From Candidatus Gastranaerophilales bacterium (GTDB taxonomy: Bacteria > Cyanobacteriota > Vampirovibrionia > Gastranaerophilales > Gastranaerophilaceae), in NCBI GenBank assembly GCA_963931255.1, contig OZ006972.1, positions 1,204,421-1,268,420 of the forward strand: 64,000 nucleotides of DNA. The letters are read 5' to 3'. Under the pieces are notes generated by a model, which saw nothing but the letters and a program-made list of their open reading frames with translations, was not told the origin of the DNA and did not search any database. The translations under genes were made by a program, and so were the position numbers. This document shows, one piece after another, positions 2,377 to 7,716 of this stretch (position 1 is the stretch's first letter; each line of letters opens with the position of its first letter).

Positions 2377-5300
2377 ATGGAATTCAAAAGTATATCAGAA
2401 TTAAGAGCTGAATACAGAGATAATCCGGATTACGCAATTGAAAGTGTAATTCCGGATATGGTTGCTGAAATGCAGTCTGATTCCCAATATGCAGGTTATA
2501 CTGAAGAACAGCTTACCCTTATTGCTAAAGCTAAATTGAATACTTTAAACGGTTTGGTGCTTAATACAGCCTTTACTCAATATATCCCGGACAATGGTCT
2601 TCCTACAGGTACAAAGTGGAATGAATACAGCTATGAAGAAATTCTTGCAATGGAACAAAACGGAGTTGTTATCCCGAAAGAATTTACAGATTGGGCTCAC
2701 TCTATGCAAGATGGTGATGCTACAAATTATGTAATTGATGAAAGCGAACTGAACAACTCAAATTCTCTTGAAGAAGTTGATCAAGCAACAGAAAATTCTC
2801 AAGACGCAATGACTGCAAAAGCAATTGCTTATGCTAAAAAGTGCCAACAGCAAGAAGAAAAACTTAACGATGCAGTAATTGATTTGGCACCTAAAAAAGA
2901 TAAAGCAGAGCAAATCCAAAATCAGGCAAAAACAGAACAAGAAAACGGTATGAAACAGCTTACCGAGATGGCAAAACGCTGGAATGAACTTGATAAAAAA
3001 CTTCAAAACGGCGAAGAGCTTACAGATTTGGAAAAAAGCGAATATGCTCAGTTAAACAAAAGTCTTAACGGTGCAAATGCTGATTTACGCAGACAAATGA
3101 CTGAAACAGCAGATAGCCTTGACGCTATTGTTGTTTCAATGGACGGTATTTCAAAAGATATTGAATCTAATACAGATTTAAGTGCTGAAACAATTGAACT
3201 GGCAAACACTCTTGCGGGTGTTCAAAAAGGTTATAACCAGACAAGTGTTCCAGGTAAAATGACATTTATGGCAATCGGCGAAATTGCTAATATGATTTAT
3301 GGTGCTAAAGGTAAATCAGTTGCAAGAGATACCGTTGATGCCGGTGTTGATTTACAGGAACTTTCTAACGAAACTCAGGTAGAAATTAATAAGAATACCT
3401 CATTATATGAATTTGCACTTGAATATGGTACAAATCTTAATGACCAGTTAAGTGAAGTTGAAAGACTTCTTGGTGAAAATCCTAATAAAGACGACCGCAC
3501 AGCTGCAACAAAAGCAGAAAACAAAGCAGGTGAAAAAGCTGAAAACAATGCAATGGCAGCAGCAGAAGAATCAACAGAAAATCTGCTTCCGGCAGAACCT
3601 GAAACTGATGTTACAACAGGAACTCCGGATAAGAGCGTAAGCGACAAAGCTTCTGCTAATATGGCTCCTGCTACTCCTGTTGAAAATAAAGCTGCAGCCG
3701 TTCAAACTTCTCAAGCTGCACCAGTTGAAGTACAAGGTGCACAGGAAGAAGAAAAATCACAATCATCTTCTGCATCTCCATCAAAAGGCGGTCAGGATGC
3801 CGAAGAATCTCTTGATGATCAAGGTGAAAACGCAACTGAAGATTCAAGAAGTACTACACCAAAAGTTGAATCCAGAGGTGTTGAAGCTGAAACTGAAACA
3901 AAAACAGCAGAAAAAACTCAAAAAGATGCTAAAAAACAAAATAAAGAAATCGTTGCAGAAGAAAAACAAGTTAATAAAAAATCAAAACAAGTTAACGCTG
4001 ACTTGAAAAATAACAATGCACAAAGCGCAACTTTGAGTGATGAAGTATCAAACGAAACAGAAGCAATGGCAGAAGTTGCAGCTGTAAACCCGGAAGAAGC
4101 CCAAACAAGAGCAGAATCTATTTCAATCGCAGGCGGCAAAATTACAGCACTCGGACAAGACAGCGGCAAAAAAGCTACAGAATTTACAGAAGAAACAACT
4201 GAACTTGAAGAAGATTCAGAAAAAGCACAAAAACAAAACGAAAAAGCTCAAAAATATAACAGCAAAGTTGAAAAAGCAATTTCTGTAATTGATCAAATTG
4301 CTGCTGTCGGTTTACAAAAAGGTATGAGCACTATCGGTACCGGTGCAGTTATGACACTCCAAGGTCAAGGTATGATAGCTGCAGGTACAGCATTGCTTTC
4401 AAATCCATTCACAGCTGCTATGGGTACAGCTTTAGTTACAGCAGGTACTACAACTACCAATATCGGTGTCGGCGCTATGAATGTTGGCGGCATCCTCTCT
4501 ACAGCAAGCTTCTATACACTTGCTGCAACTAAAGTTACAAAAATGACAATTGCAGCCTGCAATGGTGATTTGAAAGGTGTATTTAAAAACTTAGGTGCAT
4601 TTGCTACAGTTTGTGCAACATCTGTTGCTAGCTGCGCAGCTACAATGGCAGTCGGTGCAGCTACAATGGGCGTCGCAGGTCCTGTAGGAACCGCTATTGC
4701 ATCACAAGCTGCTGCGATACCTTTTGATGTTATTGGCGGTGTTGCTAATATGAATCTTTCTAACGACAATCTTAAATCTGATGATAATGATGATATTAAA
4801 GCAGAAGTTGCTCAAAAAGTTGAAAAGAAAGCAAATACAAAATCAATTTCTACACAAGCTTCACCTGCAGTTCAAAATGAAGAACAACCTGTACAAACTT
4901 CTATAAATTCTGCACAGCCTGTCTCTGCACAATCTGTAGCAGGAACAGTTCAACCGAATGCTCAACAAACAGCTGCTTTATCAGCTCCTGTAGCTCAAAA
5001 TGTTGATAATGCAGAAGAAACAACTTCTGATGAAGCTTCTGAAGAACAAACCGCAGAAGAAGAACAAGAACAGGAATTAAATTCAGCTCAACAAGCACGT
5101 GCAGACATGCTTGATTCAGGTGCAAGCAAACGCGATGTAGCAAAAGCTATGACAAACAAAAGTTCTGAACTTGAAAAACAAACAAAACCTGCTATTATAG
5201 CTTCTGCTCTAAATTCTGCAAAAGCTGAATCAATTGCAGAATCTGCTAACGGTGTTGCTGAAATGACAGTTGCTTTCACTAAATCAATGAGAAAAGAATA

Positions 5301-7716: not shown

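Follow-up and report, generated by a model that had tools for sequence, protein, structure and literature searches.

The stretch of DNA analysed here (the window) comprises 64,000 nt of contig OZ006972.1 from a Candidatus Gastranaerophilales genome assembly (GCA_963931255.1). A single large open reading frame (ORF) on the forward strand takes up about 8% of it and encodes a protein of 1,779 amino acids (aa). The large ORF is a genuine, selectively constrained gene. Its product, a protein of a non-photosynthetic gut cyanobacterium, combines long bundles of helices with acidic spacers and uncharged helical hairpins, and belongs to an undescribed family of giant proteins, modular and all-alpha, with at least about 250 sequence clusters. 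The gene and its signals are laid out as follows.

2255-2281 (approximately), forward strand: intrinsic terminator of trxA, a GC stem (CGCATTTATATGTGCG) followed by a T-run, which parts trxA from the large ORF
2364-2371, forward strand: Shine-Dalgarno-like site AGGAAAGG, 5 nt before the ATG, read from the sequence
2377-7716, forward strand: the large ORF, a complete coding sequence with an ATG start (1,779 aa, 186.7 kDa, pI 4.7)
7722-7760, both strands: bidirectional intrinsic terminator, a 17-bp stem between A-runs and T-runs, shared with a convergent pentapeptide-repeat gene

The gene is a monocistronic unit bounded by the two terminators. An earlier reading of the window, made by a model without database searches (the sequence-only reading), had credited it with its own Shine-Dalgarno-like site and a terminator on either side, and each of these elements is placed by the coordinates above. 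The same reading took the ORF for a real, maintained gene, and the comparative data bear this out. A homologue search returned 27 close relatives with 53-98% identity, nearly all of them full length (1,704-1,781 aa) and from more than 25 independent assemblies, together with 15 more distant relatives; close orthologues occur in Candidatus Gastranaerophilales, including two GTDB genomes. The ratio of non-synonymous to synonymous substitution rates (dN/dS) for the whole gene is 0.15 and 0.24 relative to two orthologues.

The possibility raised at the time, that the ORF is an assembly artefact of collapsed repeats, was rejected because a check of the gene at the DNA level found no long near-identical repeats; its two uncharged blocks, described below, are only 40% identical as protein. 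Short A-rich direct repeats are present at 4208-4275, 6341-6387 and 6815-6882, with periods of 21 and 42 nt and 68-83% identity. They encode the Lys/Glu/Gln helices directly before each hairpin, and they are leftovers of module duplication and codon bias, not collapsed repeats.

Layout of the protein

The composition of the protein is strongly biased (Ala 16%, Glu 9.1%, Thr 8.8%, Lys 8.0%, Ser 7.7%, Gln 7.0%) and its net charge is -77. The N-terminus, judged by eye, is acidic and without a hydrophobic h-region, in agreement with the earlier remark that no signal peptide is present. Three runs are free of charge altogether: 70 aa at 649-718, 46 aa at 738-783 and 72 aa at 1516-1587. The segments below were delimited with profile searches, pairwise comparison and AlphaFold2 (AF2) models, whose confidence is given as the predicted local distance difference test (pLDDT).

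2377-2715, forward strand: small N-terminal helical subdomain (aa 1-113), with the most invariant motif of the family, W81..YSYEEIL.ME..GV.IP.E...WAHSMQD
2797-3471, forward strand: helical bundle 1 (aa 141-365); AF2 helices at 141-210, 217-279 and 310-365, pLDDT 73-93
3472-3786, forward strand: spacer 1, acidic and rich in Thr/Ala/Ser/Pro/Glu, probably disordered (aa 366-470, net charge -9)
3787-4206, forward strand: Lys/Glu/Gln-rich helical region 1 (aa 471-610), which leads into block 1; jackhmmer unit duplicated at aa 1271-1512
4207-4761, forward strand: uncharged block 1 (aa 611-795); A3 profile match, E 3.9e-25
4276-4569, forward strand: glycine-ladder hairpin core of block 1 (aa 634-731), with the turn LLSNPFT at aa 671-677 (NPFT at 674-677)
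aa 738-783: hydrophobic helix after the hairpin of block 1
4762-4986, forward strand: spacer 2, variable, acidic/Gln/Pro (about aa 796-870), the least conserved part, with an identity of 0.28-0.40 and indels
4987-5826, forward strand: helical bundle 2 (aa 871-1150), an internal copy of bundle 1
5827-6186, forward strand: spacer 3, acidic Ala/Ser/Thr/Asn (aa 1151-1270, net charge -16), of low conservation
6187-6912, forward strand: Lys/Glu helical region 2 (aa 1271-1512)
6913-7251, forward strand: uncharged block 2 (aa 1513-1625; wider bounds aa 1480-1663); A3 profile match, E 2.3e-26
aa 1503-1600: glycine-ladder hairpin core of block 2, with the turn LCTPWT at aa 1543-1548
aa 1601-1619: hydrophobic helix after the hairpin of block 2
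7252-7383, forward strand: Gln/Met/Asn-rich helix (aa 1626-1669), uncharged at 1631-1669; helical in the model, with low confidence
7384-7587, forward strand: Ala/Thr/Lys-rich segment (aa 1670-1737), amphipathic helices by eye; net charge +2, pI 9.2
7588-7713, forward strand: basic C-terminal tail, the final 42 residues (aa 1738-1779, net charge +9), 86-98% conserved among close homologues

The protein contains a module of about 700 aa twice, as a tandem duplication; within the module, an acidic spacer and then a Lys/Glu helix link a three-helix bundle to an uncharged block. Iterative profile searches recover the helical bundle twice: the profile of the N-terminal domain (N-domain, positions 113-357) matches aa 871-1150 with an E-value of 1e-59 in jackhmmer and of 1.3e-4 with the hidden Markov model (HMM) of alignment A1. 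The two uncharged blocks are 40% identical over 159 residues (E 1e-23, pairwise comparison). Within the second Lys/Glu region, aa 1370-1437 are an uncharged stretch of Ala/Gly/Pro/Ser, and aa 1441-1512 form a strongly basic helix (net charge +10). The pair of modules is capped by the conserved N-terminal subdomain and followed by the Gln/Met-rich helix, the Ala/Thr/Lys-rich segment and the basic tail.

The segment list of the sequence-only reading was correct, including both uncharged Gly/Ala/Thr/Val blocks, the Gln/Met/Asn-rich segment and the basic tail, but the two-copy organisation, and with it the homology of the blocks, had been missed. Its N-terminal region of roughly 125 aa was drawn too short; the conserved N-terminal unit spans about 375 aa. 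AF2 models helices over aa 25-113 of the N-terminal subdomain with a pLDDT of about 65-78, and the loop at the tip of bundle 1 (aa 282-312) is poorly modelled (the pLDDT of the whole N-domain model is 67). In the N-terminal motif, W81, E88, M92, G96, I99, P100 and A107 are invariant in alignment A1.

Selection acts unevenly along the gene. Among close relatives the blocks, the N-domain and the tail are best conserved and the spacers are most variable, and within block 1 aa 721-760 are 100% conserved among close homologues. Constraint is strongest in the N-terminal bundle (dN/dS 0.03-0.10) and block 1 (0.05-0.07); the ratio is 0.22-0.25 in spacer 1 and 0.2-0.5 in spacer 2, and it reaches 0.84 in spacer 3 (aa 1126-1270) relative to locus L002, where the synonymous rate (dS) is only 0.10. 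Synonymous divergence from this relative (L002:5764-10920) is itself a mosaic, at 0.5-2.0 over aa 1-1125, 0.10 over aa 1126-1270, 0.29 over aa 1271-1512, 0.01 over aa 1513-1625 and 0.00 over aa 1626-1737. Because dS collapses after aa 1125, the comparison indicates recent recombination or gene conversion between lineages in the 3' third of the gene.

The glycine-ladder hairpin and its family

Each uncharged block opens with an antiparallel helical hairpin that has glycine at every seventh residue. Anchored on the turn, even diverse blocks give an almost ungapped alignment. Counted from the residue before the proline, which is usually Asn, the first arm has Gly at -27, -20, -13 and -6 and the second arm at +7, +14, +21 and +28, so that the N-P-[F/W]-T tip has four G-x6 heptads before it and at least four after it. 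Positions G23, P44, T46 and G50 of the alignment are invariant, and G30, G37, N43, F45, G57, G64 and G71 are each at least 90% conserved. Autocorrelation of glycine positions over 260 blocks found 1,500 Gly-Gly pairs at lag 7 against 463 expected (z = 57), with a second signal at lag 14 (z = 34); in the window protein alone, the lag-7 z is 3.5 for block 1 and 4.5 for block 2. The consensus heptad reads G (91-95%), T/Q/A, A/V, M/L, I/L/V, S/A/G/T, T/N/A/V, or in simplified form about G-polar-A-[M/L]-[I/V]-small-[T/A]. Two large hydrophobic residues thus stand beside each glycine, and the remaining surface of the hairpin is small or polar and uncharged. In the AF2 model of block 2, a long helix turns back at LCTPWT into a second one, with a pLDDT of 80-88 around the turn.

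The seven-residue glycine spacing on both arms and the modelled hairpin are those of a small-x6-small antiparallel helix pair. The GX6G motif is a mode of small-residue packing that prefers antiparallel, left-handed helix pairs and has been used for designed membrane nanopores (PMC12713772). The window protein shares with this motif (also GAS-left or Alacoil) a Gly every seven residues on both arms, small residues at +2/-2 and, in the AF2 model, antiparallel arms. GX6G is a structural motif, however, not a family; the window protein repeats it at least 4+4 times round an N-P-[F/W]-T tip, in a modular context of 187 kDa, and so offers a natural example of a packing now in the hands of nanopore designers. 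We know of no natural family with a heptad glycine ladder round such a tip.

As far as Pfam, NCBIfam, PHROGs and the PDB show, the glycine-ladder hairpin is an undescribed element. Its construction, like that of the whole protein, follows known principles (coiled coils, small-x6-small packing and low-complexity spacers). Searches with the whole protein, the N-domain and the hairpin block returned nothing significant in Pfam, NCBIfam, PHROGs or PDB sequences and profiles. The window protein has no Pfam or NCBIfam match at E<=1, and its sole match among PDB sequences is at chance level (E 0.19). In Foldseek searches of the PDB and BFVD, the best E-values were 0.27-0.48 for the N-domain and 0.38-1 for the block, all above 1e-3; the structural neighbours of the block are generic long hairpins at E >0.1 (SH3BP5, chemoreceptor signalling domains, Vipp1, Smac, colicin and the AhlB/SmhB pore chains). 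The statement that the protein has no recognisable family, made at first from its letters, therefore holds after profile, PDB and Foldseek searches. That a protein matching no curated family or solved structure is nevertheless conserved under purifying selection across an order is what makes it worth attention.

The only name that any database source gives a family member is the IMG label 'ElaB/YqjD/DUF883 family membrane-anchored ribosome-binding protein' on the homologue P0176. This identity was rejected, as neither P0176 nor any block has a Pfam or NCBIfam match to DUF883. DUF883 proteins (YqjD, ElaB, YgaM) have about 100 aa and a C-terminal tail anchor with GxxxG-type spacing, unlike the internal heptad hairpins of the window protein. 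In YqjD a cytoplasmic helix, E-N-P-W-T and a Gly-rich membrane helix follow one another, much as N-P-[F/W]-T is followed by a Gly-rich helix in the hairpin. This is a suggestive local parallel: aligning the hairpin alignment with YqjD in hhalign paired seven residues round ENPWT only, with a probability of 10%.

A search of 1.84 billion cluster representatives with a profile of the block yields 253 proteins at E<=1e-3, 112 of them at E<=1e-10. Among 144 newly listed representatives, 89 combine the N-domain with about one to five blocks (896-2,817 aa) and 55 lack the N-domain. The window protein is matched by both the A1 and the A2 profiles and has the architecture of N-domain plus hairpin; the C-terminal tails of nearly all members with this architecture are net-positive. 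A Gastranaerophilales-like group accounts for 44 of the 55 N-domain-less representatives. Its members are about 515-730 aa long where complete and are otherwise shorter or longer fragments; they consist of a Lys/Glu helix, one hairpin block and amphipathic helices, with a net-positive C-terminal end in most. Six others form a separate group with a GC content of 50-54%.

The N-domain profile in turn finds proteins of 438-492 aa that consist of the N-domain and a Pro-rich tail. Such N-domain-only genes (L007-L010, at 10001-11377 or 10001-11479) occupy the same RNase T-trxA locus in other Gastranaerophilales. Because hairpin-less orthologues sit at this locus, the N-domain is its orthologous core and the hairpin modules are an expandable insert. 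Through gain and loss of whole modules, orthologues vary from about 450 to more than 2,800 aa, and the number of hairpins at the same locus varies from 0 to about 5. Two hairpin-only proteins of about 600 aa from the Gastranaerophilales-like group were found at L011:500-2503 and L013:808-2646, between a divergent fabI and a convergent PilZ gene (PilZ E 4e-8); these may be the fission partner of the N-domain-only proteins. Together, the N-domain-only orthologues and the hairpin-only proteins provide natural deletion variants. A resemblance of the basic tail to its counterpart in the N-domain-only proteins (RFNxxSIIESKKK versus DFNNINTILKRQQK) was discarded, as two HMM tests scored it no better than shuffled controls.

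All lineages that could be placed belong to the Vampirovibrionia, and the family is apparently specific to this class. P0176, one of the six representatives in the group with a GC content of 50-54%, is encoded in GCA_003149345.1, the genome of Vampirovibrio chlorellavorus Vc_AZ_2 (PMC13157829), which gives the family relatives in a cultivable predator. The Vampirovibrionales homologues, L015:10001-11554 from this strain and L014:10001-12280, have one hairpin and Gly/Pro/Gln/Tyr-rich termini. On the opposite strand lies an SNF2_assoc/SNF2 helicase gene, which overlaps the homologue convergently in L015 and is one uncharacterised ORF apart in L014. The 4+4 heptad glycine ladder round the NP[F/W]T tip could be turned into a family model and could serve as a lineage marker.

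Candidate functions

We calculated insertion energies by hand with the simple additive Hessa scale for 19-residue segments. By this measure the helices after the hairpins, aa 741-759 and 1601-1619, are at +2.4 and +3.3 kcal/mol, compared with about +1.5 for the proven Gly-rich tail anchor of E. coli YqjD. The 19-residue Kyte-Doolittle mean exceeds 1.5 only at aa 739-764 and 1601-1619 (1.5-1.6). The uncharged runs of the window protein are flanked by Lys-rich helices.

The reading we tentatively favour, well short of an even chance, is that the protein is a very acidic scaffold, made in the cytoplasm and held at the inner membrane by its hairpin blocks. Cytoplasmic synthesis is suggested by the lack of a visible signal peptide. 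The small-x6-small ladders would hold the two arms of a hairpin tightly together. Hairpins of both blocks, or of several molecules, would probably pack against one another as well, so that the protein would self-associate. The uncharged hairpins, the hydrophobic helices that follow them and the basic C-terminal region would hold the protein at or in the inner membrane, leaving roughly 1,300 residues of acidic bundles and spacers as an extended cytoplasmic platform on which the invariant N-terminal motif would dock a partner. Such a scaffold would act like the polar or envelope hubs FimV and HubP, without kinship. It would share with them a very large size, a very acidic and repeat-rich make-up, variable length and the organisation of envelope machines from the inner membrane. 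The resemblance is a functional analogy only: the window protein has no LysM domain, N-terminal signal, transmembrane segment or FimV C-terminal motif, and Pfam and NCBIfam are silent. The range of 0 to about 5 hairpins among orthologues at one locus fits a scaffold of tunable size. An all-alpha protein with low-complexity spacers suits a cytoplasmic scaffold better than a surface protein of a diderm bacterium. Also in favour are the strong constraint on the bundle and the hairpin block, the duplicated module, the glycine ladder with its GX6G packing, the charge-free runs, the more hydrophobic helices after the hairpins, and a +9 tail on a protein of pI 4.7. Pilin-like DUF6613 genes and cyclic di-GMP (c-di-GMP) genes (GAF-HD_5, PilZ) recur within about 10 kb of several family members and lend the scaffold weak circumstantial support; we take their proximity as weak because both kinds of gene are common, and it may be due to chance.

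A number of observations weigh against a membrane-held scaffold. The arms of the hairpins are marginally hydrophobic, their best 19-mers lying at +4.7 to +5.9 kcal/mol, and their exposed heptad positions are T/S/A/G/N/Q. Across the family, the 20 residues on either side of the uncharged run show no consistent positive charge (means +0.3 and +0.5). The Vampirovibrionales homologues have a Lys-rich second arm (GTALKVAGKALKVAGK...) of soluble appearance. AF2 gives the hairpin block a low confidence (57.6 for the whole model), and no adjacent partner gene is conserved except trxA, which has its own terminator. On the insertion scores, hydropathy, flank charges and Lys-rich homologue arms, a transmembrane nature of the blocks is borderline, and the hairpins appear too weakly hydrophobic for classical transmembrane helices. 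They could be marginal inserting elements, re-entrant anchors stabilised by oligomerisation, or elements of pure protein packing. The sequence-only reading had asked for a transmembrane or amphipathic propensity of the blocks, and the outcome here is borderline.

If lipid contact is left aside, the lack of charge would serve protein-protein packing, and Gly/Ala hairpins of the Alacoil type would stack into filaments or sheets of a soluble fibrous or cytoskeletal coiled coil. The small, polar exposed heptad positions and the positive insertion energies of the arms point this way, as does the fact that the tip and the ladder, not the surface, are conserved between orders, the Vampirovibrionales versions being Lys-rich and amphipathic. 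Foldseek places the block closest to long hairpins of a generic kind (chemoreceptor signalling domains, SH3BP5, Vipp1, Smac), in no case significantly, and the remainder of the protein is coiled coil and spacer, a make-up that resembles the coiled-coil-rich cytoskeletal proteins of bacteria. We nonetheless regard a soluble fibre as unlikely: soluble coiled coils seldom have charge-free stretches of 70 residues, the helix after each hairpin is clearly more hydrophobic (Kyte-Doolittle 1.5-1.6), and the basic, amphipathic C-terminus looks suited to binding a membrane or a polyanion. Rather unlikely, too, is a secreted or contact-delivered alpha-helical pore-former or translocator, for which the named analogues are the ClyA-family toxins and the type III translocators. 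Its hairpins would be kept soluble by the shielding amphipathic and Gln/Met-rich helices and would, at a target membrane, extend and oligomerise through their small-x6-small faces. A charged coiled coil does lead into an uncharged hairpin of about 2 x 30 residues with an aromatic tip, and the marginal hydrophobicity of the arms is typical of proteins that need a soluble stage first. Designed GX6G peptides form pores; the AhlB/SmhB pore chains are among the best geometric Foldseek matches (probability up to 0.95, TM-score 0.5, but E about 0.4-1); and homologues occur in the predator V. chlorellavorus. A possible secretion route exists in the flagellar export genes that many Gastranaerophilales retain and that have been suggested to secrete other substrates (10.64898/2026.04.24.720558). 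The ClyA-family and tripartite toxins (AhlB, SmhB, YaxB, Hbl/Nhe) do share with the window protein a long helical bundle with a weakly hydrophobic helical hairpin that can extend into a membrane. They are, however, proteins of 300-400 aa encoded in toxin operons, whereas the window gene is solitary, chromosomal and five times larger, no sequence, profile or Pfam similarity to them was found, and their Foldseek E-values are 0.3-1.8. Nor is there a Pfam or NCBIfam match to the type III translocators (SctE/SctB; SseC, IpaB), and more generally no significant sequence or fold match to toxin or translocator families. No type III secretion genes occur among the scanned ORFs of the window and related loci, no partner toxin components in six genomic contexts, and no secretion-system, chaperone or immunity genes nearby. 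A stable, single-copy, housekeeping-like locus under strong purifying selection shows no arms-race pattern; 187 kDa with long acidic low-complexity spacers would be atypical of a pore-former; and the N-domain-only orthologues have no hairpin at all.

A molecular ruler for an envelope machine (a flagellum, a pilus or a phage-derived injection device), with length set by the number of modules, would account for the differences in orthologue length, which arise by gain and loss of whole modules. Like the tape-measure proteins of PF10145 and TIGR01760, the window protein is all-alpha and of variable length and has hydrophobic Gly/Ala-rich segments, an organisation common among tape-measure proteins. 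One Vampirovibrio homologue matches PF10145 below threshold (18.8 bits against a cutoff of 33.2, E 0.0016). The window protein itself matches neither Pfam PF10145 nor NCBIfam TIGR01760 at E<=1, and tape-measure families do not recur in 23 hairpin blocks, where a single match to phrog_1533 (E 0.044) was seen. A tblastn search of 50,697 phage genomes found no match, IMG/VR holds no relative of the N-domain, and no tail-module, flagellar or pilus-assembly genes are adjacent. Known rulers, moreover, lack large conserved end domains of this type. The tape-measure parallel drawn in the sequence-only reading is not supported by these results, given also the stable chromosomal trxA locus in several lineages, and we hold a ruler to be very unlikely. 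Least probable of all is a surface layer, adhesin or other exported structural protein, although the large size, low complexity, acidity and Thr/Ser/Ala-rich make-up recall many surface proteins. No signal peptide is visible by eye, and Pfam, NCBIfam and the sequence give no sign of SLH, Ig-like, beta-helix or autotransporter domains or of type I secretion, type IX secretion or sortase-type signals. The models are wholly alpha-helical or disordered, and no export genes lie nearby. The S-layer and adhesin families that had been named as candidates to exclude are thus set aside. The remaining probability, beyond the scaffold and its four rivals, falls to something else.

These readings differ in what they would mean. 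Hairpins that insert into membranes would make the family a membrane anchor or pore of a new class; hairpins that do not insert would make it a tightly packed fibrous coiled coil of a new type. It is improbable, yet would be the most novel outcome, that glycine-ladder hairpins from several blocks or molecules build an alpha-helical pore, fusion or membrane-bending structure. The Vampirovibrionia, among them the algal predator Vampirovibrio and the human-gut Gastranaerophilales, would then possess giant pore-forming or membrane-remodelling proteins of a class peculiar to their lineage, with no kinship to known toxins, translocators or ESCRT/Vipp-type systems.

Genes around the locus

The gene trxA and an RNase T-like exonuclease gene lie upstream in five of six genomic contexts. 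A link between a conserved Cys and the neighbouring thioredoxin was considered and rejected, as Cys positions do not align across the family (alignment A2) and trxA has its own terminator. Downstream, the window and its nearer relatives carry a pentapeptide-repeat gene, genes for two LuxR-type response regulators, a TPR gene and a GAF-HD_5 gene; elsewhere an amylase-like gene follows in two contexts, and mutL or pilin-like genes stand beside the short forms. The neighbourhood has the look of synteny in slow decay and not of an operon. Genes of secretion systems, phages, flagella or toxins were not found near the gene in the window or at related loci, in line with the earlier impression that nothing nearby points to a translocator or a ruler.

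The downstream cluster occupies 7774-12920 on the reverse strand of the window and is syntenic in L003 and L004; the stop and start of its two LuxR/GerE-type regulator genes overlap. The N-terminus of its 514-aa TPR protein looks like a signal peptide, and its GAF and HD_5 protein is HD-GYP-like ('HHEKYDGTGYY'). A 514-aa protein near three family members had appeared to be a conserved partner; it proved to be two unrelated proteins, this TPR protein and an amylase-like glycosidase. Pilin-like genes were located at 16315-16995 on the forward strand of the window and at L003:9008-9751, L006:6510-7274 and L009:11648-13371. Those of the window, L006 and L009/L010 include DUF6613 genes, some with an N_methyl prepilin signal, and the 247-aa neighbour in L003 has no Pfam match but an N-terminus that reads like a prepilin. 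A protein of 1,624 aa at L009:16507-21381, 5 kb from an N-domain-only gene, was examined as a carrier of the missing hairpins and rejected: it is an unrelated coiled coil with acidic, Leu/Ile/Glu/Asp/Ser-rich repeats, no Pfam match and no similarity to the window protein.

There are no RNA genes in the window. Three further sizeable ORFs have no Pfam match at E<=1e-5, at 23418-25184 (reverse strand, 588 aa), 25916-26827 (reverse strand, 303 aa) and 17109-17744 (forward strand, 211 aa). The rest is ordinary housekeeping: the RNase T-like exonuclease, TrxA, PGM/PMM, prephenate dehydratase, TyrRS and CysRS, with MurJ, SpoIID, MnmE and MurT among the further genes.

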